From an uncultured Gammaproteobacteria bacterium (GTDB taxonomy: Bacteria > Patescibacteriota > Microgenomatia > UBA10105 > UBA927), in NCBI GenBank assembly GCA_964639945.1, contig CAZXHY010000003.1, forward strand, positions 1-54,439: DNA of 54,439 nucleotides, given 5' to 3'. Position numbers and translations under genes: made by a program. The notes under the pieces are model-generated. The model made no database searches. It saw only the letters and a program-made list of their open reading frames with translations, and had not been told where the DNA came from. Shown in pieces: positions 552 to 15,786 of the stretch. Position 1 is the stretch's first letter, and the number at the start of each line of letters is the position of its first letter.

Positions 552-1274
552 ATGAGTGGTCATTCAAAGTGGTCGAAAGTTAAACATCAAAAAGCCGTTA
601 CCGATGTCGTAAAGGCAAGAGATTTTACCAAAGCTTCACGTGCGATAACTGTTGCGGTTTCTGAAGGTGGTGGTATTGCAGATCCGGAAAAAAATTTCCG
701 ATTACGATTAGCAATAGAAAAAGCACGTAGTGTAAACATGCCCAAAGAAAATATAGCACGTGCTATTGATAAGGGGGTATCTGGTTCAGGGCTTTCCTTT
801 GAGCAAGTTGAGTATGAAGGATACGCCAAGGGTGGGGTAGCACTAGTCGTCGAAGCGACAACTGATAATCGCCAACGAACCTCGGCTAATGTGAAGCATG
901 CGTTTGATCGTGCAGGGGGAAGTCTTGCAGTTCCAGGGGCGGTGAACTTTATGTTTGAAAGACTTGGCGTTATCGTTGTAGCGCATGATGGATCGCGCAC
1001 ATTTGATCAAGTATTAGATGCGGCCATTACTTCTGGGGCACAAGATGTGGTTGAGCGATCCGATGCTTTTGAAATATATACTACCGTTTCAGAATTACGA
1101 CGCACAAAAGAGGCGATAGGGCTTGCGGGATTTGCGATAGAGAACACAGAAATTATCATGAAAGCCAAGGCACCAGTTATCGTCAGTGACGAGATACGTA
1201 TGATGACTGATGAGTTAGTTGCGCAGTTAGAGGCATTGGATGATGTACAAAAAGTGTTCACATCAGTAGACTAG
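552..1274 (+). CDS. yebC: YebC/PmpR family DNA-binding transcriptional regulator
   Basis: 240 aa. The N-terminal MSGHSKWSKVKHQKA is the family hallmark (MAGHSKWANIKHRK-like), and length and layout are typical. Confidence 0.93.
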   Translation: MSGHSKWSKVKHQKAVTDVVKARDFTKASRAITVAVSEGGGIADPEKNFRLRLAIEKARSVNMPKENIARAIDKGVSGSGLSFEQVEYEGYAKGGVALVVEATTDNRQRTSANVKHAFDRAGGSLAVPGAVNFMFERLGVIVVAHDGSRTFDQVLDAAITSGAQDVVERSDAFEIYTTVSELRRTKEAIGLAGFAIENTEIIMKAKAPVIVSDEIRMMTDELVAQLEALDDVQKVFTSVD

Positions 1275-1287
1275 CCATAGTGTACAT

Positions 1288-2127
1288 ATGATAAAAACAA
1301 TTCGATTATTTTTTATCAAGCGGTTTAAGCGTTGGGATCGACGTATGTCGTTATCCAAACGACAAGAGTTTGTGCTTATCACGTTTATATTGACCATCGT
1401 TATGATGTTGACCCAGCTCGTATCCTCGGAATTGCGATACCCTATGGTGGTGTTACTTTCGGTGCTCACCTATGTGCTTTGTGCAGTAGCGCTTCGAGAA
1501 GACTTGAAGGGAGCAGAGTGGGTGACACTGCTAACGTTGCCCACACTATTTACGGCGGCTGTAGGAGTATTTTATTTTTTGCTTCCAGTTCGGTGGCTTA
1601 CGAGACTTCCCATCGCTGCGTTATATGCCATAGGGATATATGCATTGCTTCTGACAGAGAATATTTATAATGTTGCGGCAACGCGCACTATAGCATTGCT
1701 GCGCGCGGGTCATTCTGTAGGATTTTTACTTTCTCTGGCCACCTACTTTTTGTTAGTACAAAGTATACTCGCATTTCGACTGTATCCTATTGTAAACGCA
1801 GCGCTCGTAGGCGTGATGACATTTTTGCTTACATTGCAAGTGCTATGGGCGATGGAATTAGAACGCACGATAGGGAAGAGTATACGAAATCTTACGGTTA
1901 TTATAACTTTAGTCCTTATTGAAATTGCTTGGGTTTTTTCTCTCTGGCCAGTGCGTACGACGCTTCAAGCAGTGCTTCTTACCACCTGTTTCTACGGTCT
2001 TGCTGGCATGGGTCAACAGTACTTGGCCGACCGATTGTATAAGCGTACAGTCTGGGAATTTTTTGGCGTTGTCGCAATTGTATTTATTATTTTAATTTTG
2101 GCAACAAATTGGTACGGTGCTGTTTAA
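1288..2127 (+). CDS. Polytopic membrane protein of unknown function
   Basis: 279-aa ORF with about 8 hydrophobic segments and no recognisable catalytic motif. An alternative start is Met20 at 1345. Confidence 0.65.
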   Translation: MIKTIRLFFIKRFKRWDRRMSLSKRQEFVLITFILTIVMMLTQLVSSELRYPMVVLLSVLTYVLCAVALREDLKGAEWVTLLTLPTLFTAAVGVFYFLLPVRWLTRLPIAALYAIGIYALLLTENIYNVAATRTIALLRAGHSVGFLLSLATYFLLVQSILAFRLYPIVNAALVGVMTFLLTLQVLWAMELERTIGKSIRNLTVIITLVLIEIAWVFSLWPVRTTLQAVLLTTCFYGLAGMGQQYLADRLYKRTVWEFFGVVAIVFIILILATNWYGAV

Positions 2128-2386
2128 ATTATTTTTTATCGTGGAACAAGGGGAGAGAGAACAGGGGAAAAGGGGGTGATATAGTTTGATACAGTTAAGT
2201 CAGGTCAATAAAACTATAGGATACGATGTGGATAATTATTTTCACGGGGATTGGTCATTGTTTTCACAGCCTCATTTAGCTTCATATATCTAAAACTATA
2301 GGGTATGTCACTCCTCACTACTAGGCATGTATTCGCTTCACACGCTCACTCTTCTGAGTACAGGATGTGTGCGTAATAATACCCGT

Positions 2387-2814
2387 TTGCATTGTTCTGA
2401 CGCTCTATTTCGTAATACGGGCATGCTTCTAAACTCCTGAAATTAGCCTCAAAATAATGTAATTGGCGCATATTAACGCTCTAAATAAACCCGAAAGGAA
2501 TTAAGCTGGCGTGTACACATGCGCGAGTGCTAACTGCTCTAATGTGCGCTTTCTTGCAATGCCAAAGTATGTATTATTGAGGCTAAAAAATTCACTGCGG
2601 AGCATTTAAACGCTCCGCGCTGTTTCGAGTATAATACTTGTAATTTATAAATAATTAGCCTCGAAAATGATAGAATGGGGCATAATAACGCTCCAAATCA
2701 CGTCACTCCCTGCATATTAATATATATGCGAATTATGCTATTCTAGCCTCGAAAATTATACTTTAGCGCATTATTATGCTCTAAATAGCGACGTCATAAA
2801 TAACCCGAAAGGGT
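2387..2814 (+). repeat. Array of imperfect direct repeats, each carrying a short hairpin (candidate structured RNA, protein-binding or MITE-like modules)
   Basis: Module layout is 7-mer TAGCCTC (2444-2450, 2656-2662, 2744-2750; inverted GAGGCTA at 2579-2585), then an A-rich 11-14 nt spacer, then a hairpin with an 8-nt AT-rich loop. The hairpins are TTGGCGC/ATATTAAC/GCTCTAA (2463-2484), GCGGAGC/ATTTAAAC/GCTCCGC (2597-2618), GGGGC/ATAATAAC/GCTCC (2677-2694) and TAGCGC/ATTATTAT/GCTCTA (2764-2783). Degenerate partial copies lie near 2387-2408 and 2521-2545. Modules 1 and 4 are followed by CCC-GAAA-GG mini-hairpins (2490-2498, 2803-2814). Confidence 0.6.
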
Positions 2815-3342
2815 GTTAGGGGCACCTGCAACTTCTGCTCATTTTGATCTTAATTTAGGTAACGCGATCGTCATAAAGGGCGTGTTACGAAATGTATACA
2901 TGCTGTATTTGAGGCTGTGTACTGCTTCTCTACAAGTGTCACAAATATAAAAATATGTTTGGCCATATTTTGGGCATATACACCTGTCTAGAGAAGAACC
3001 TGTCATAGGTCGCACAATAATACTTTTGCGACGTCTGGAAGCTAGGTACGGAGAAGTGCAATCTTTTGTCATTGTTGTATATATCATCAATTCTTTTATC
3101 AATATTGTGATTACTCCAGTATTTTGCACCATTTGTCGTTGTTACTCTTTTTTCTTCTATTTGCACCTATTGGTCTTTGGCTGTTTTTGTACTTTTTGTG
3201 TTCATCTGTGGTTACCGGATTCTTCGAGTTTTTATAGCATTTTTCCTTACTGTTTACAGAACACTTTAGAATGAGATGACCACTTGTACGTCTCAAATAT
3301 CTGGAACGGCTTGTAGGTCAATACAGGGGCTTAAAAATGAGG

Positions 3343-4047
3343 CTAAATATTGCGAAACGGAAACGATTCAATAACGGTAGTTTTCGACGGATGCATGCCG
3401 GCATTTGTCGTCACCAGCGTTGTTTCTTTTGGTGAAAATATTCCAAACTTTTTATCTTTATTTTCTTCGATCGTTTCTAAAAATAATTTTGTTGGTGGTT
3501 TCGTAAATCTACAAATGGTTACATTTGCAAAAACAATTTCGTTGGTAAAATATTTTTTATCATCAGCAAGATTTGCCTCGGCAAACTGATTACGGAGAGA
3601 TTTAACCATGTGGTCATAATCTGGATCTACCAGCGCGATTATAGATACACTTGTCGGCATAGACAGTAATCCAACCAGTTCAAATGTAGGCGCAGGATAT
3701 GTGGGTATAGATGATCGCAATAAATCTCTGGCGTGCTCAATGTCAGACTCAGTAAAGCTAGCTGGATCACGCACGACACGTATGTTGTGAACCGTGACAT
3801 GCAATGATGATTTTGGAAAGTAATACTGGTCCGGATCGATTACCGCAAGCGGTTTTATGATGGCTTCATGTATGTTTTTGGCGAGTTGCTCTGGCAGATA
3901 TGAGACGGTCGTTAGACACAGTGCATTGTCATTTGCGTAGTCAGACTGCATGGAGACTATTTCAGAAGCTTTAGGGTTGGCAGCGAGCGCAGATTCCATT
4001 TGGCGCATGAGGAAAAGCTGTCGTGTTTGAAACGGTGTCATATACAA
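3343..4047 (-). CDS. Hypothetical protein, possibly a degenerate 2H phosphoesterase (LigT/ThpR-like) fold
   Basis: 234-aa ORF. It has one clean HxTx motif (LHVTVHNI) and a second motif-like stretch ANVTICRF in which the His is replaced by Asn. Spacing of about 100 aa is compatible with the 2H superfamily. Confidence 0.5.
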   Translation of the reverse strand: MYMTPFQTRQLFLMRQMESALAANPKASEIVSMQSDYANDNALCLTTVSYLPEQLAKNIHEAIIKPLAVIDPDQYYFPKSSLHVTVHNIRVVRDPASFTESDIEHARDLLRSSIPTYPAPTFELVGLLSMPTSVSIIALVDPDYDHMVKSLRNQFAEANLADDKKYFTNEIVFANVTICRFTKPPTKLFLETIEENKDKKFGIFSPKETTLVTTNAGMHPSKTTVIESFPFRNI

Positions 4048-4100
4048 AGTGTATCATATTCAGTTGACGTCGCACATTTTATATATCAGACTATATCGTG

Positions 4101-4109
4101 TGCTATAAT
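4101..4109 (+). promoter_or_regulatory. Extended -10 promoter element TGcTATAAT
   Basis: Perfect TGnTATAAT at 4101-4109, ending 9 nt before the ATG at 4119. This implies a leaderless or near-leaderless transcript. Confidence 0.4.
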
Positions 4110-4118
4110 CACCGCCAA

Positions 4119-4688
4119 ATGACCAGATATCCTGATTACTGGACGAATGCATTGGCAAAATATACTTCTCACGAAATTGTTAGTCGAAATTCGATGATCC
4201 CCACAGAGTATCAACTTTGGATAAATGCATATTTTGGCGCGATTGCCGATAGGCAGGAAATAAAACTTGCTGGCCCGATCTCCATAAGTATTAGGCAATC
4301 AAAAAGATTGTTCAATATACGTCCGTTATGGGCAATGTCGTTTGAAGAAAAACGATTTAAAGACCATCGTCGTATCGCAGCATCTATGGCAACCGGTGTG
4401 TTTGAAAATCCTAGTATGAACGCATGGGCATTCCAGCGAGAACTTATTTTTGATTTGAATAGACGTCTCATTCTTGTAGAACGAACAATGGATGCGAGCG
4501 GAAATCTTCAAAAGCTAGCGCTCATGCGATCAAACAGAAATACAACAGATTTGCAGGTCGAACATCGAGTAAATCGTCGAAATTTTAATATAGTAACAGT
4601 GCCGCAAATTGGGCGTAGAACAAGTCTATCAGTCTTGTTATCAAGTCCACGTTCTATAGCCGAAAACGTACCCGCAACCCTTATATAG
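4119..4688 (+). CDS. Hypothetical protein (no recognisable domain)
   Basis: The ORF track starts at a GTG at 4098. The ATG at 4119 (MTRYPDYW...) is preferred because the TGcTATAAT element overlaps the upstream codons. 189 aa. Confidence 0.55.
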   Translation: MTRYPDYWTNALAKYTSHEIVSRNSMIPTEYQLWINAYFGAIADRQEIKLAGPISISIRQSKRLFNIRPLWAMSFEEKRFKDHRRIAASMATGVFENPSMNAWAFQRELIFDLNRRLILVERTMDASGNLQKLALMRSNRNTTDLQVEHRVNRRNFNIVTVPQIGRRTSLSVLLSSPRSIAENVPATLI

Positions 4689-4737
4689 TATTGACAAATT
4701 TCTTCGCGTCGTACAACAATGATTGTGAGGACATGGT

Positions 4738-4762
4738 TGTGAAATTTTTGTACATTTTCACA
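4738..4762. promoter_or_regulatory. Inverted repeat TGTGAAATT-TTTGTAC-ATTTTCACA upstream of the Xer gene (candidate recombinase core site or operator)
   Basis: 7-bp perfect arms TGTGAAA (4738-4744) and TTTCACA (4756-4762), extendable to 9 bp with one mismatch. The centre contains TGTACA. It ends 33 nt before the xer ATG. Confidence 0.35.
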
Positions 4763-4794
4763 TTACTACATTTTGTCTCATTTATTAGCCATTT

Positions 4795-5760
4795 ATGAAT
4801 CTTGAAAAACTTGTATTAGAATTTTTAGAATATCTGGAAATTGAGCGAAATGTTTCTCGTCTCACCATTCGAAACTATAAACATTACTTAGAGAGGTTTT
4901 TGGGCTTTCTAGCAGGCCATTCCCCTACTCCCCTCCCACCAGACAAGGCTAAAAGTGCAATTTCTGGTCTTACAAGCGAGGCTATAACGGCCGAAAATGT
5001 GCGTCAGTATCGTCTGTATTTATCTCGGTTTACGGATGAGCATGAACAGACGTTGAAGCGCGTGACACAAAATTATCATTTGATCGCCTTGCGAAGTTTT
5101 TTGAAGTATCTAAACAAACGGGACATTCCAGCGCTTGCATCAGAAAAAATAGATTTGCCAAAAGCAGAAAGTCACACGATAAAATTTTTGGATCATGAGC
5201 AAGTTGAACGGCTTATGAATATGCCGGAAATTTCAACGCCCGAAGGATTACGAGATAAAGCAATTTTGGAAGTGCTATTCTCCACTGGCCTCCGTGTATC
5301 GGAACTCGTGAGTCTCAACCGCGATCAAGTAAATTTGGACCGCAGAGAGTTTGGTGTTGTCGGAAAAGGACGTAGGGTTCGCGTGGTATTTCTCTCAGAA
5401 AAATCAGCGGAATGGCTCAAGCGGTATCTAGGAACTCGTGAAGATTCGTTGCAGCCGATTTTTATTCGGTATAGCGGAAAGAAACCTGATGCAAGTGATA
5501 TGAGTGGGAATTCTATCAGACTGACGGCTCGAAGCGTACAACGATTAGTAGCAAAATATGCAGCGAAGGCAAAGCTGCTTATCAAAATTACTCCGCACGG
5601 ACTTCGTCACAGTTTTGCTACAGACCTTCTCAGTAACGGTGCAGACCTGCGCGCGATACAAGAATTGCTCGGTCACAAAAATGTATCAACGACTCAAATA
5701 TATACCCATGTTACTAACCCGCAGCTCAAACAAATTCATGATAAATTTCATACCAATTAA
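4795..5760 (+). CDS. Tyrosine site-specific recombinase, XerC/XerD family
   Basis: 321 aa with an N-terminal SAM-like core-binding domain. Catalytic motifs are GLRVSEL (Arg), HGLRHSFAT (HxxR) and LLGHKNVSTTQIYTHV (His and Tyr). Confidence 0.9.
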   Translation: MNLEKLVLEFLEYLEIERNVSRLTIRNYKHYLERFLGFLAGHSPTPLPPDKAKSAISGLTSEAITAENVRQYRLYLSRFTDEHEQTLKRVTQNYHLIALRSFLKYLNKRDIPALASEKIDLPKAESHTIKFLDHEQVERLMNMPEISTPEGLRDKAILEVLFSTGLRVSELVSLNRDQVNLDRREFGVVGKGRRVRVVFLSEKSAEWLKRYLGTREDSLQPIFIRYSGKKPDASDMSGNSIRLTARSVQRLVAKYAAKAKLLIKITPHGLRHSFATDLLSNGADLRAIQELLGHKNVSTTQIYTHVTNPQLKQIHDKFHTN

Positions 5761-5768
5761 GGAGGGCG

Positions 5769-6767
5769 ATGAACATATCAGTTTTGTACAATAAACCAAC
5801 GCATAGGTTTAGTGACACATCAAAAAATGTTGAAGCCGAAGAGGATACACAAGAATCCGCTGAAGAAGTGCTTGAAGCGCTTGAAGAAAAAAAATATCAC
5901 GCAAAACTTGTTCCCATAACAGAAGACAATATCCCTGAAACAGTAGATTTGTTATCCACCAGTGATTTGGTGTTTAATCTCATCGAATGGACTGGTGTAG
6001 ACGCGCATTTTGCTGCGGACGTCTATGATTTGTTTGCAAAGAAAAAGATTAAATACACAGGAGCGACCAAAGAGAGTTATTTCCTCTCGTGCGACAAAGT
6101 TGCTATGAAAAAGCGTTTGGATGAAGGTGGGTTTGCTACTGCACGTTGGCAAGCGTTTGAAACGGGCAACGAACCCATACGAGACGACTTAATTTTTCCT
6201 GTGATTGTAAAAGTAAGTTTGGAACATTCAAGCGTCGGGCTCTCAAAAGAAGCCATTATTGAAGATCCAGACAAATTACAAAAATTTGTAAAAAAACAAA
6301 TTAAAAAATTTAAACAACCAGTGCTTGCTGAGCAATTTTTGACTGGGAGAGAATTCCAAGTCACCCTACTGGATTCGAAAAAGGGACTTGTCGTGCTTCC
6401 CCCTTCTGAAGTGGTCTATTATAAAGGGACAGATGTGCCGTTTTTGACCTACGAAAGTCGATGGAATGCAGATCATCCTGATTTTGATAATTCCACCGTT
6501 GTGATCGCAAAACTTTCACCAGAAATGACGAAGGAAGTCGAAGAGATGTCCAAACAAGTGTTTATAAGTATGGGGTACCGCGATTATGCACGATTTGACG
6601 TGCGTTGTCTTGGCGATCAACCAATGTTTTTGGAAGTGAATTCAAATCCAGGTCTTAGTGACGATCCCCAATATGGTATGACCGTTTCCTATAAATCAGT
6701 CGGTATGACGTTTGCCGATGTGATAGAAGAAATAGTAGAATCCGCCAGACGTCGTTACGGGATATAA
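5769..6767 (+). CDS. ATP-grasp enzyme of the D-alanine--D-alanine ligase-like family (atypical N-terminus)
   Basis: 332 aa. The ATP-grasp core includes PVIVKVSLEHSSVGL, EQFLTGREF and the C-terminal FLEVNSNPGL. The N-terminus (ISVLYNKP..., acidic stretch) differs from canonical Ddl (KIAVLFGG.S.EHEVS). Confidence 0.7.
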   Translation: MNISVLYNKPTHRFSDTSKNVEAEEDTQESAEEVLEALEEKKYHAKLVPITEDNIPETVDLLSTSDLVFNLIEWTGVDAHFAADVYDLFAKKKIKYTGATKESYFLSCDKVAMKKRLDEGGFATARWQAFETGNEPIRDDLIFPVIVKVSLEHSSVGLSKEAIIEDPDKLQKFVKKQIKKFKQPVLAEQFLTGREFQVTLLDSKKGLVVLPPSEVVYYKGTDVPFLTYESRWNADHPDFDNSTVVIAKLSPEMTKEVEEMSKQVFISMGYRDYARFDVRCLGDQPMFLEVNSNPGLSDDPQYGMTVSYKSVGMTFADVIEEIVESARRRYGI

Positions 6768-7348
6768 ACGCGAGCGGTTGCGATACGGAAGTATGGGAGA
6801 GATTCTGGCTCACGGGCTATGACAATCATCAGTTGTGGTTGCCATTTGTGAATGAGTCGGAATTTTTTACTCGTTTTTGAAACTTTCTTTCGTTTGTAAT
6901 CGTAATCCCACCAACGAGCGCGAAAATCGGCCCAGCCATATGATTTACGTTTGCCTGTGGCACTATCCATGAGAACTATTCTACTTTTGGCAGCAAGGTA
7001 GGAGGCGACGACTGCCCAATGTCCAGATTCTGGATGAGGCTCAAATTTTTCATCAAGATCATAAAGATACGAAACGATAACGGCTCGTTGTTCGTTGGCT
7101 CTGTGTTTAAGAGCGCTTTGTAGGTGATGCAGCGTAGAATATTCCATGACTAAACAAGAAAGCCCAAGTTTATTTATCGCCATAATTAAATTTTTGGTCG
7201 ATGTGCCATTTCTTCCTGTTTTGCAAAGTTTGATAAGAGACTCCAAAGATTTTCGCATGCCAATAACGCTCAGTGCGTGTTTGAGTGAAACTGGACCACA
7301 GGTTATGTCGTCTGGTTGTTGAATTGGTTTTACGTGACTTCTGCCCAT
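6755..7348 (-). CDS. Stand-alone papain-like cysteine peptidase, C39-like domain
   Basis: 197 aa. QQPDDITCGPVSLKHALSVIG matches the C39 Q-x5-CG-x2-L...G active-site block, and a downstream His lies in ESGHWAVV. It overlaps the ATP-grasp 3' end by 13 nt (convergent). Confidence 0.6.
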   Translation of the reverse strand: MGRSHVKPIQQPDDITCGPVSLKHALSVIGMRKSLESLIKLCKTGRNGTSTKNLIMAINKLGLSCLVMEYSTLHHLQSALKHRANEQRAVIVSYLYDLDEKFEPHPESGHWAVVASYLAAKSRIVLMDSATGKRKSYGWADFRARWWDYDYKRKKVSKTSKKFRLIHKWQPQLMIVIAREPESLPYFRIATARVYIP

Positions 7349-10777: not shown

Positions 10778-13321
10778 TTATTTGGTGAGGCAGGTAGCGG
10801 CGGCAATCGTGTCATTTTTATCCGTGAAGCGCATCAGGATGACGCCACTGGTCGCACGAGACAATTTCGGCACGGATTTGATAGGAAGCTTCACCACCTG
10901 ACCTTTGTTTGAGGTCAATATTACCTCTTCGCAATCTGGTGGAACGAGTTGTGATACAACCACTTTTCCAGTTTTTGGTTTGATTTCAGCGACTTTTACC
11001 CCTTGTCCCCCACGTCGTTGTTTTGGAAATCCTGACACTTCTGTCTTTTTTCCTATCCCTTTTTCCATGACCGTGAGGAACTCACCTTTTTTGGCTAGAT
11101 CATCTATGACATCCATGCTTACGACAGAATCTTCAGGTTTGAGCATGACTCCTCGGACACCCATGGTGTCGCGCCCTGTGTGACGCACTTCTCCCTCGGC
11201 AAACCTGATAGATTTTCCATCATGGGACACAAGGAGGATATCATCCTCGCCACTGGTAAGTTTTGCCCAAATGAGCTGGTCTCCGCTTTCAAGTTTTATG
11301 GATACAAGGCCATTACGTCGAATATTTTCAAATTCTGAAAGTTTTGTCTTTTTTACCACACCACGTTTGGTGGCCATAAATATATAGGCAATGCCTTTTT
11401 CTTTCTGCTCATTTCGTTTCAAGCTATAGGAAAGCATAGAGGTAACTTTTTCTGAGCTTTCGATATTGATAAGGTTTACGACTGCCTGTCCTTTTGACTG
11501 ACGACTGGCTTCTGGAATATCCCAGACTCGAACTTGATATACTTTTCCTTTATCGGTAAAGAATAACATGTTGTCGTGTGTTTCTGCGGATATAAGTTTG
11601 TCGATCGCATCTTCTTCTTTGGTGGTCATGCCGATGACCCCTTTACCACCGCGTTCCTGAAGCTTGAATGTGCTTCGTGGAACACGTTTTATGTAGCCCG
11701 TTTCGGTCATGGTGATAATGGTTTCTTCGTTGGCTATAAGCTGTTCATCCGAGAGTTCTCCCACCTTGCTCTTGTAGACTTTGGTTCGTCTGGCATCGCC
11801 ATATTTTTCTTTGAGTTTGGCTAGTTCATCTTTGACGACTTTCAGAATTTTTTCTGGGTGCTCCAAAAGATCAAGCAAATACGCTATTGTTTCGCGTATC
11901 ATGGCGAGTTCGTCTTCGATTTTCTGTCGCTCAAGGGCGGCGAGCTTACGAAGTTGCATGTCCAAAATTGCTGTTGTCTGAATTTCTGAGAGACCAAATC
12001 GTGCCATAAGTTTCTTCTTGGCTTCATCTGCATCTTTACTTTTTTTGATAATAGAGATGACTTCGTCGATATGGTCAACGGCAATTTTAAGTCCTTCGAG
12101 TATGTGTTCACGAGCTCTTGCTTCTTTGAGTTCAAATTCACTGCGTTTTCGGATCACATTATGTCGGTGTTTAATGTATTCCTCTAGTATTTCGCGAAGT
12201 GTGAGCGTTTTTGGCGTGCCATCGACGAGGGCCACCATGTTTACTGGGAACGATGTTTGCAGTTCGGTAAACTTGTACAAGTTGTTTAAGACTTTGTTAG
12301 GTTGAGCGTCGCGTTTGAGTTCTACATAGACACGAATTCCGCGGCGATCAGATTCATCCCGAAGATCAGAGATACCTTCGAGTTTCTTTTCTTTTACAAG
12401 ATCTGCAATGCGAGCCACAAGATTTGCTTTGTTTACTTGGTACGGGAGTTCTGTGATAGAGATTGCACTTTTTCCATTGGCTATTTCTTCGATTTCTGCT
12501 TTTCCGCGAATAATGATTTTACCGCGTCCTGTGGCATATGCATTTCGGATCTCGTTTATATCGTAGATTGCTCCTGCCGTTGGAAAATCTGGTCCGGTTA
12601 CAAATTGCATAAGATCTTCTAAATCTGCGTCAAATGTCATGATAGGCGCTTCTGGATTGGGTGCATATTCACCTTTTGCAAGCTTTTTGTCTTCTTTTAC
12701 CACTGGCCTTTTTTCTATTTTGACTTTGCCAATCATGTAATTGATCGCGTCGATAATTTCGGTCAGGTTGTGTGGCGGAATTTTTGTCGCCATACCGACT
12801 GCGATACCTTCACTTCCAGCCAAAAGTAGGTTTGGAAGTTTGGCAGGAAGTACATCCGGTTCTTCTATGGACCCATCAAAGTTTGGAGAAAAACTTACCG
12901 TCTCTTTCTCGATGTCGAGAAGCATCTCGTCGGCTATTGCCGCAAGCTTTGCTTCTGTGTACCGCATGGCAGCTGGTGGATCTCCGTCTATGGATCCAAA
13001 GTTTCCTTGGCCGTCAACCAGTGGATATCGCATCGAAAATTGCTGTGCTAAGCGCACCATGGCATCATAGACCGAGGAATCTCCGTGCGGGTGATACTTT
13101 CCAAGAACTTCTCCAACCACTGTTGCGCTTTTTCTATATTTTGCACTGTGATGCAATCCTACTTGGTGCATGGCAAAGAGAATTCTGCGATGTACGGGTT
13201 TTAACCCATCTCGCACATCAGGAAGTGCACGTGCTACGATGACACTCATAGCATAGTCCATGTAGGACTTTTGCATTTCTGCGACTATCTCAGATGGTTG
13301 AATTTTCCCTATTGCTGCCAT
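10778..13321 (-). CDS. gyrA: DNA gyrase subunit A
   Basis: 847 aa. Features are [11 protein letters not shown], the active-site AAMRYTE (Tyr), the QRDR-like [10 protein letters not shown] and C-terminal beta-pinwheel repeats. Confidence 0.97.
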
Positions 13322-13327
13322 AGTTGT

Positions 13328-13849
13328 TTAGTGATGTGCGGCTATACCGTCTGTTATTTCTTTTTCTGCCACCGCGCGGCCTTTCCATTCCTTGAGTTTT
13401 ACCCATTTCCCTGCTTCTAATTCTTTGTAGTGTTCAAAGAAGTGTTTGATTTTGGCCTTTATCGGTTCTGGGATATCAGAAACATCCTTCCAGACGCCAT
13501 AGAGTGGATCAGATTTTTCGGTGGGAACTGCGACCACTTTCGCATCAACCCCAGATTCATCTTCCATCTCAAGTAGTCCAATCGGAACCACGTTCACCAT
13601 AGTTCCGGGGTGTAGTGGTTGGCTACAAAGCACCATGACATCGACGGGGTCCCCATCTCCACTCATTGTGTTTGGTACAAATCCATAATTGGCTGGGTAC
13701 CCCATGGTGGTACGGACAAAGCGATCTACCATGATAATTTCTGCCTCTTTATCCATCTCATACTTCACCATACATCCTTCTGGGATTTCGATGATGACAT
13801 TTATGTCTTGTGGTGGATTTTTTCCTGCTTTAATTTTAGATAGGTTCAT
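13328..13849 (-). CDS. ppa: Inorganic pyrophosphatase (family I)
   Basis: 173 aa. Motifs are YPANYGFVPNT and DGDPVDV. Confidence 0.93.
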   Translation of the reverse strand: MNLSKIKAGKNPPQDINVIIEIPEGCMVKYEMDKEAEIIMVDRFVRTTMGYPANYGFVPNTMSGDGDPVDVMVLCSQPLHPGTMVNVVPIGLLEMEDESGVDAKVVAVPTEKSDPLYGVWKDVSDIPEPIKAKIKHFFEHYKELEAGKWVKLKEWKGRAVAEKEITDGIAAHH

Positions 13850-13875
13850 ATGCCTCCTTTGAATAAAACAATATA

Positions 13876-15786
<1,911 letters not shown>

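Follow-up and report, generated by a model that had tools for sequence, protein, structure and literature searches.

What are the four repeated, quasi-palindromic modules that occupy a non-coding gap near a Xer recombinase gene in an uncultured Microgenomates bacterium? The window analysed here is a stretch of 54,439 nucleotides (GenBank assembly GCA_964639945.1, contig CAZXHY010000003.1, positions 1 to 54,439, forward strand), deposited as an uncultured Gammaproteobacteria bacterium and placed by GTDB in the Patescibacteriota (Microgenomatia; UBA10105; UBA927). Its gap of about 1.2 kb at positions 2128-3342, poor in open reading frames (ORFs), contains modules A to D and a Xer core-type site, here called the anchor. 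A first-pass annotation, made from the letters of this DNA, had described the modules as hairpins with compensatory stem changes, and had offered small structured RNAs, iteron or recombinase binding sites, attC-like cassette sites and decayed mobile elements as candidates. Comparison with related loci suggests that, on balance, the modules are probably accessory sites for protein binding, specific to one lineage, in the left arm of a control region for dif, and possibly for the replication origin or terminus (ori/ter). The comparison directly supports the anatomy, conservation and orientation of the modules, the absence of RNA covariation in them, the link between the anchor and xer, and a switch in the polarity of short motifs at the anchor.

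The gap lies between two convergent genes, one encoding a DUF5656 membrane protein (1288-2127, + strand) and the other orf234 (3343-4047, - strand), an unannotated ORF of 234 amino acids. A search for relatives of the DUF5656 protein led to 59 syntenic loci in Gottesmanbacteria-like genomes of the candidate phyla radiation (CPR), or 60 loci including the window, and the order common to the 59 is yebC - DUF5656 - gap - (orf234) - xer. Alignment shows that the gap is conserved blockwise among these relatives; the close-relative alignment referred to below comprises the window and loci L001-L015. In addition, metagenomes were searched with a 24-nt anchor pattern containing two degenerate positions, which at least 120 contigs matched exactly and once each, with about 10 kb of readable sequence around each match. 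No conserved ORF or known RNA was found within the gap.

The four modules start at 2444, 2579, 2656 and 2744 (spacings of 135, 77 and 88 nt), and repeat and motif searches agree with the coordinates, spacings and ORF-poor setting first given for them. Each module is a composite, consisting of a YAGCCTC box, a gap of fixed length and a 24-bp quasi-palindrome, TTTRGMGC-N8-GCKCTAAA. In module A (2444-2498, + strand, like the other three), the box TAGCCTC (2444-2450) is followed by the quasi-palindrome (2462-2485) and a AACCCGAA box (2488-2495). In module B (2579-2619), the heptamer is inverted in place (GAGGCTA, 2579-2585) ahead of the quasi-palindrome (2596-2619). Module C (2656-2705) contains TAGCCTC (2656-2662), the quasi-palindrome (2674-2697) and a remnant of a GCGACGTC box, ACGTCA (2700-2705), and module D (2744-2813) contains TAGCCTC (2744-2750), the quasi-palindrome (2762-2785), the Xer-arm half-site GCGACGTC (2788-2795) and AACCCGAA (2802-2809). 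The two copies first described as degenerate are also real, and are conserved half-sites of the GCKCTAA type at 2389-2410 and 2527-2543. The former belongs to a segment conserved in the close-relative alignment (2354-2410, + strand), in which the block CTGAGTACAGGATGTGTGCGTAATAA is followed by the single half-site GACGCTCTATTT; the latter consists of two GCT(C)TAA half-sites (+ strand), and relatives keep an xGCTAA motif about 55 nt after module A. The core GCATWWWWWYGCTC is present in four exact copies and in seven matches with at most one mismatch, a number reached by 0 of 100 shuffles, and the repeat search also detects a 43-nt direct repeat in three copies with 72-77% identity. Five of the six TAGCCTC copies in the window fall within the gap, which also contains an inverted heptamer box, GAGGCTG, at 2911-2917 (- strand).

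A profile built from module D was used to search about 800 kb of sequence from the loci, together with the 54-kb window. Full-length copies number 117, in 49 of the 60 loci, all on the + strand and all inside the gap, with none outside it. An alignment of the 115 distinct copies over 50 columns needs no gaps, and the distance from box to palindrome is therefore fixed. Their consensus is YAGCCTC-RAAA-N7-TTTRGMGC-RTWWWWAY-GCKCTAAAT, in which G25 and C40 are invariant and AGCCTC is 88-98% conserved. The central 8 nt are asymmetric and are seen in both orientations (GTATTAAT, ATTAATAC), even between orthologous modules. Two types of box accompany the palindrome: RCGACRT (of the GCGACGTC type) at an offset of 1-2 after it in 19 of the 117 copies, compared with 0.2 expected, and AMCSGAA (of the AACCCGAA type) at fixed offsets in 60 of them. 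The supposed GNRA-like mini-hairpin CCC-GAAA-GG is conserved as the box AACC(C/G)GAA, whose 3′ G residues are not kept, so the mini-hairpin falls away. The ACGTCA box previously pointed out does exist, but as part of GCGACGTC, the right arm of the neighbouring Xer-type site, and not as an independent element.

Arrays contain 1-6 copies per locus, uniform in orientation and restricted to the left arm, and are specific to Gottesmanbacteria-like Microgenomates. Module spacing across the loci is irregular (about 78, 87, 96, 105 and 180-215 nt, with a full range of 72-298 nt). In the close-relative alignment the positions of modules A-D match, while the intervening DNA varies. The array in the window spans about 370 nt and ends about 195 nt short of the anchor core. 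The heptamer box is itself biased in orientation around the anchor, with 166 AGCCTC and 56 GAGGCT upstream versus 25 and 63 downstream. In more distant lineages the modules are replaced by 150-300 nt of unconserved DNA, while the G-runs, DnaA boxes, anchor and end block described below are retained. The irregular spacing and the 72-77% identity of the repeats bear out the earlier statement that this is not an array of clustered regularly interspaced short palindromic repeats (CRISPR).

The proposal that the modules fold as RNA finds little in these copies. Module B folds at -15.3 and -17 kcal/mol (z of -2.4 and -3.3) and is the sole strong hairpin, whereas modules A, C and D, for which hairpins had also been claimed, fold no better than shuffles (z of +0.5 to -1.4) and have C-T or G-T oppositions in their 'stems'. 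Across eight arm pairs in the 115 distinct copies, 77.6% of cells are paired compared with 78.9% in column shuffles, and the covariation score is 0.106 compared with 0.118 in shuffles, with 452 of 500 shuffles reaching the observed score. Fisher tests detected no positive covariation among the arm pairs. One arm position is unpaired in 68 of the 115 copies (59%) and shows no covariation (Fisher p = 0.22), another has C-A oppositions, and at one position G-T oppositions on the + strand number 42, versus 4 for A-C. RNAalifold predicts 0 pairs for the module copies. Searches of the window and 13 other loci against Rfam gave nothing at the gathering threshold, with only chance-level matches in the gap (E at least 0.14). 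Promoter or terminator signals are not in excess at the modules, and sigma-70 promoter-like sites within them number 4, versus 4.8 expected in shuffles, with no conservation of the -10 position. Two of the checks suggested with the first-pass annotation, Rfam and covariation among related CPR loci, were negative, and its compensatory changes, its selection on structure and its small structured RNA family are not borne out.

Because the arms are conserved without covariation, with no consensus fold and no Rfam match, and because the centre occurs in both orientations, the palindrome is better read as a protein site than as a stem. The modules look like cis-acting, double-stranded DNA sites for protein binding, rather than RNA genes. 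The earlier mention of iteron or recombinase binding sites had pointed in this direction, although plasmid iterons as such do not fit, since the spacing is irregular (72-298 nt) and a Pfam scan of the seven flanking ORFs (552-7348) revealed no rep gene. Two other readings of the repeats were rejected. Long-range RNA pairing between TAGCCTC and GAGGCTA boxes is contradicted by partner variants that do not covary. Small peptides on the - strand were considered since the core resembles a Shine-Dalgarno sequence followed by ATG, and three of the short peptides share FEAN; the ATG is replaced by GCGT in about half of the 117 copies, one copy has an in-frame stop, and no ORF is conserved.

The best-conserved element of the gap is the anchor (3006-3034, + strand), which has the form TAG-GTCGCACA / ATAATA / CTTTTGCGACG-T, with an approximate 11-6-11 layout. 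Its core at 3009-3034, GTCGCACAATAATACTTTTGCGACGT, is nearly invariant over 26-28 bp and unique in the 54-kb window. The inverted arms GTCGCACA and CTTTTGCGAC flank the hexamer ATAATA, and multi-base variants are confined to this hexamer (TTATAT, ATATAT, AGCGTA and others), giving a less conserved centre between inverted arms of about 11 bp each, which is the anatomy of Xer/dif sites. The anchor is present with at most four mismatches in 48 of the 60 syntenic loci, always on the + strand, and 168 loci have one anchor per contig. Only one two-armed anchor is found per locus, other occurrences being single-arm. Among the metagenome contigs, all 68 loci in which this could be tested have DUF5656 upstream of the anchor, and 31 of 35 have xer downstream; in most anchor-bearing metagenome loci the DUF5656 protein is only 27-45% identical. 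No matches to the anchor were found in viral contigs, and no conserved ORF runs through it. An RNA hairpin was also rejected for the anchor, since arm positions 5/20 are CG in 44 cases, CA in 32, TA in 26 and TG in 18, and a T-to-A change at position 2 is uncompensated.

The neighbouring xer gene (4795-5760, + strand; Pfam Phage_integrase, E 6e-45) is the only Xer-family tyrosine recombinase gene in the window, which contains no second recombinase ORF, and is a conserved neighbour at this locus. Its product scores 250.9 for XerC, 242.7 for XerD and 225.2 for XerA with the NCBIfam models, and passes only the XerA cut-off (220). Compared with the XerC/XerD profiles, it appears to have about 25-30 extra residues (around 41-70) after the N-terminal SAM-like helix. 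The promoter region of xer (4691-4730, + strand) contains TTGACA (4691-4696) and an anchor-arm copy, GTCGTACAA (4708-4716), overlapping the -10-like TACAAC, together with a degenerate second arm. Of 123 loci, 114 have the arm motif GTCG[CT]A[CA]A[AT] in the 250 nt preceding the xer start, compared with about 0.1 expected per locus, and across loci it overlaps a -10-like TACAAT or abuts the -35 TTGACA. These half-sites suggest autoregulation by the protein that would bind the anchor. Such half-sites in the window are GTCGTACAA, 15 nt past the TTGACA that precedes xer, and, at 4064-4077 ahead of orf196, GTCGCACAT joined directly to TTGACG.

Polarity was examined by searching for 7-mers with unequal strand bias on the two sides of the anchor. 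The motif AGGGGAG is distributed 101:0 (+:-) to the left of the anchor and 3:155 to the right. Binned at 100 nt, the motif is mostly on the + strand as far as -100 and mostly on the - strand from +100 onwards, which places the switch within about 100 nt of the anchor. Beyond 1.5 kb on either side the bias persists (AGGGGAGA, 35:0 left and 1:41 right), and the loci show the polarity from -10 kb to +13 kb, and the window as far as +46 kb. Counted per locus, the + strand has the majority on the left in 105 of 106 and the - strand on the right in 69 of 73. The canonical FtsK-orienting polar sequence (KOPS) of E. coli, GGGNAGGG, is distributed 70:6 left of the anchor and 10:49 right of it, and the SpoIIIE recognition sequence (SRS) of B. 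subtilis, GAGAAGGG, 22:1 and 2:13. Occurrences of the polar motif in the window lie within genes in both sense and antisense, and it is therefore not a ribosome-binding site. Judged from these counts, the polarity switch is the signature of FtsK-orienting sequences converging on a putative dif. Within the gap, a G-rich cluster (2143-2179, + strand) includes two KOPS-like AGGGGA motifs (2149-2154 and 2163-2168) pointing to the anchor, and aligned relatives and compact loci have a G/A-rich patch after the DUF5656 stop codon. A hairpin upstream of the anchor (CTTCTCT/AGAGAAG) was considered and rejected, since the region cannot be aligned across loci and is better explained by polar purine patches.

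The anchor is read as dif because it lies at the KOPS-like strand switch and because its arm recurs in the promoter of the single adjacent xer, and it is probably the chromosomal dif of a dif-xer module. The recombinase gene adjoins dif in single-Xer systems (PMC5357621), and an arrangement of one Xer gene beside an imperfect-palindrome core is shared with difSL-xerS of streptococci and lactococci, difH-xerH of Helicobacter and Campylobacter, and some archaeal dif-xerA pairs. Further likenesses to these systems are the conserved arms, the variable centre of about 6 bp, the converging polar G-rich motifs and a recombinase with similar scores as XerC and XerD; the anchor may also share their single copy per chromosome, being found once in the 54-kb window and once per contig. 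Unlike them, the anchor is not at a GC-skew switch, is flanked by a DnaA cluster and in one clade by a module array, and has an arm copy in the recombinase promoter. Its arm GTCGCACAA was compared with the arms of difSL and difH as given in PMC5357621, and is related to neither. The link to the Xer gene first drawn from this DNA is real, although the site is at 3006-3034, 225 nt to the right of the modules and beyond the stretch first described, and is not the GCGCAT(A/T)A motif of the modules that had been likened to a XerC arm.

How might the modules act beside such a site? A predicted dimeric protein would load on the module palindromes, Xer monomers would join it at the half-sites embedded in the modules, and the resulting nucleoprotein structure beside dif would control events there. 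In cer of ColE1 and psi of pSC101, the non-coding DNA on one side of the Xer core binds other proteins, and cer has a palindromic ARG box; origin-type features likewise lie close to the Xer site in both plasmids. The modules, too, are putative protein sites on one side of a Xer core; they are oriented and have embedded Xer half-sites. These half-sites, together with the one-sided orientation, favour participation in Xer synapsis; by analogy with cer and psi, the modules may tentatively be regarded as accessory or architectural sites that govern synapsis and the selectivity of resolution, a specific assignment that we consider plausible but somewhat doubtful. The accessory regions of cer and psi are about 180 bp long, abut the core and are phase-sensitive, whereas the array here covers 370 nt, lies about 195 nt from the core and is unphased. 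Control by FtsK, suggested here by the KOPS-like polarity, plays no part at cer and psi.

Several observations weigh against this reading of the modules as accessory sites of dif. The last module starts 227-400 nt before the anchor without helical phasing, a looser arrangement than in cer and psi, and accessory sites should be dispensable at a dif of the FtsK type guided by KOPS. Distant lineages without modules keep the anchor, the DnaA boxes and the polar motifs, and the modules are therefore not essential to the core function. The anchor-arm half-sites beside -35 boxes could belong to a transcription factor other than Xer. FtsK was looked for among the ten largest ORFs only. Unlike at a classical dif or terminus, skew at third codon positions (GC3 and AT3) does not flip at the anchor: GC3 skew keeps the same sign for at least 10 kb to the left and at least 50 kb to the right, whatever the gene strand, and G and T are in excess on the + strand along the whole window. 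The element is still best filed as a Xer/dif module with accessory sites, and the combination of a KOPS-like switch, a DnaA cluster and no skew flip lends the locus more interest than the repeats have by themselves.

The DnaA cluster lies in the left part of the gap. An AT-rich repeat and an inverted box (2180-2222, + strand) comprise TATAGTTTGATA at 2180-2191, which has 2-3 tandem copies in relatives, and AACTATAGG at 2212-2220, with a second copy at 2294-2302. A motif search found a perfect DnaA box, TTATCCACA, at 2227-2235 (- strand), and two DnaA-box-like TTTTCACR boxes follow at 2239-2246 and 2261-2268 (+ strand), 22 bp apart. There are 118 occurrences of TGTGGATAA in 188 kb of gap DNA versus 9 in 1178 kb elsewhere, and the opposite orientation is never seen within the gap; TTTTCAC[AG] occurs at 1.30/kb in gaps versus 0.032/kb elsewhere, with a spacing of 22-23 bp in 75 pairs. 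The three boxes, within 42 bp, are enriched 40-80 fold in gap DNA (168 loci), in fixed orientation and beside AT-rich 11-mers, and 59 of 106 loci have TATAGT[TC]TGATA upstream of the anchor. The DnaA-box cluster and AT-rich element looked for in oriC are thus both present in the left part of the gap. No dnaA was found in the 54-kb window or in the 2-15 kb examined per locus in 179 loci, and no minimum or other extremum of GC skew, as looked for at oriC, is seen at the locus. In one relative (L094), four tandem CCTATAAT boxes lie in the left arm at about 3360-3420 (about 320-260 nt upstream of the anchor at 3677), where they stand in for the AACTATAGG or ATTATAGG boxes of other lineages.

Given the loose spacing and uniform orientation of the modules and the skew anomaly, a Ter-like role is kept in play, in which the oriented modules would bind a terminator-type protein and halt forks arriving from one direction beside dif. 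The terminus would thereby be defined and, if an origin were adjacent, replication would be effectively unidirectional. The uniform orientation, one-sided placement, 1-6 copies and irregular spacing of the modules recall back-up Ter sites, and the Tus-Ter systems of E. coli, R6K and R1 and the replication terminator protein (RTP)-Ter system of B. subtilis likewise have multiple oriented, asymmetric sites, irregular in number and spacing, near dif or the terminus. Each module is an asymmetric site combining a box with an imperfect inverted repeat, RTP sites are also imperfect inverted repeats, and the array adjoins a dif-like site at the KOPS-like switch. Skew of one sign on both sides of the anchor would also fit, and such skew has been published for whole chromosomes of other Microgenomates (PMC7143001). 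Tus-Ter and RTP-Ter, however, have two opposed groups of sites rather than one orientation group, and no terminator-protein gene (Tus- or RTP-like) is seen in the conserved neighbourhood here. Moreover, lineages without modules share the skew and polarity pattern, and if the G-rich strand is the leading strand, the modules are on the wrong side of the DnaA boxes to stop an unproductive fork. We consider such a barrier unlikely, though a serious contender. Close proximity of the DnaA boxes likewise keeps a replication-control role in play, in which the gap would be an origin, or a DnaA-control locus like DnaA-reactivating sequence 2 (DARS2) or datA, and the modules would be iteron-like or regulator sites acting on the DnaA complex. 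The box trio, with its enrichment, fixed orientation and 22-23 bp spacing, the adjacent tandem AT-rich 11-mers and the presence of gyrB and gyrA 8-13 kb away are all in keeping with this. DARS2 and datA of E. coli are conserved non-coding, mid-chromosome loci away from oriC, with at least three DnaA boxes and sites for the architectural proteins IHF and Fis at conserved positions and spacing (PMC5742627), and the gap resembles them in combining a three-box DnaA cluster with flanking conserved sites. They have no Xer site or polarity switch, and the flanking sites in the gap are palindromes. To our knowledge, DARS2 and datA occur only in proteobacteria. Against an origin-associated role stand the lack of a skew minimum and of dnaA noted above, the spacing, which is not iteron-like, and the lack of a rep gene; in addition, the modules begin about 180 nt from the boxes, cover 370 nt and are missing where the boxes are kept. 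This role seems to us quite improbable.

The remaining alternatives fare less well. If the modules were transcription-factor operators, they would control promoters in the gap, either for a non-coding transcript or for read-through of a neighbour. The 24-bp palindromes are conserved in sequence as operators would be, and the palindrome of module D overlaps weak -35/-10-like hexamers on the - strand; but promoter-like sites show no excess over shuffles (4 versus 4.8) and the putative -10 is not conserved, the genes on either side are convergent, and the gap contains neither a conserved ORF nor a known RNA, which leaves this explanation with little probability. Still less can be said for a family of small structured RNAs or of single-stranded hairpin sites of the attC type, a reading that the stable hairpin of module B and the excess of G-T over A-C at one arm position favour, and that the shuffle comparisons, the empty RNAalifold and Rfam results, the arm position unpaired in 59% of copies, the C-A oppositions and the centre found in both orientations contradict. 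For attC in particular, there is no R''/R' pair (no GTTRRRY partner), the intervals of 77-135 nt contain no ORF, and the integron-integrase signature is absent, the recombinase scoring 109.6 compared with a cut-off of 265. Decayed mobile DNA, either miniature inverted-repeat transposable elements (MITEs) or remnants of integrative mobile elements exploiting Xer (IMEX), is the least credible. Repeats beside a Xer site, with an anchor-xer segment that varies in content and from 250 to 5500 nt in length across loci, are what such remnants might leave. However, all 117 copies found in about 800 kb are within the gap, and those of the aligned relatives are at orthologous positions, which also excludes recent duplication; there is a single two-armed anchor per locus, and it is absent from the viral contigs searched. 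Integron- or IMEX-like cassettes were likewise rejected for the variable anchor-xer segment, which contains only half-sites; their centres differ from that of the anchor, and recombination between them is therefore unlikely.

A broader proposal concerns the gap as a whole. Closed genomes of other Microgenomates show a near-linear cumulative GC skew of one sign, and it was proposed that their origin and terminus are adjacent, with no locus named (PMC7143001, Kadnikov et al.). The gap could conceivably be this juxtaposed origin-terminus-dif region, although we regard this as rather unlikely. On that proposal, the DnaA boxes and AT-rich repeats would fire replication, a single fork would circle the chromosome, and replication would stop a few hundred bases off, at dif with its converging KOPS-like motifs. 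The module array would then be a polar barrier or terminus structure that enforces one-way replication in the Gottesmanbacteria-like clade. A literature search on dif or oriC in CPR bacteria found nothing specific.

Other features of the locus complete its description. Directly 3' of the anchor is a T-rich, low-GC tract (3060-3270; GC about 0.35, AT skew -0.33), which differs among loci in sequence and length. The gap closes with an end block (3273-3345, + strand), in which a quasi-palindrome, GAGATGA..CGTCTC, is followed by GGCTTGTAGGTCAATACAGGGGCT and then by the inverted heptamer TGAGGCTA; two quasi-palindromes and an inverted GAGGCTA box are found 200-310 nt after the anchor in many lineages. 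RNA hairpins were rejected for the end block, since RNAalifold gives no structure and covariation is not in excess. An ORF of 97 amino acids (2839-3132, - strand) overlaps the anchor and is annotated as a gene in a public assembly (L180), but it is conserved in the nearest relative only and is therefore probably a spurious gene call. In the segment between the gap and xer (window 3343-4688), orf234 is restricted to close relatives and no match to orf196 was found at any of the 59 genome loci; Pfam and NCBIfam have no match for either. Farther right, gyrA and gyrB (10781-15786, - strand) are genes that are origin-proximal in many bacteria, and no dnaA or dnaN was seen near them. Leftward extension of the window by means of the YebC protein found only contigs of up to 4.6 kb.

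If the reading of the gap as a dif control region is correct, the Microgenomates, a large uncultivated group within the CPR, would gain a recognisable chromosome-maintenance locus, comprising a new dif sequence, a single XerA-like recombinase, KOPS-like motifs and, a few hundred bases away, a DnaA cluster, to which one clade would add an array of sites for a further, predicted DNA-binding protein. The published puzzle of the single G-rich strand in some Microgenomates chromosomes would become testable at a concrete locus. The 26-nt anchor may serve as a landmark for orienting and checking CPR assemblies, and the modules as defined DNA probes for capturing the protein predicted to bind them.

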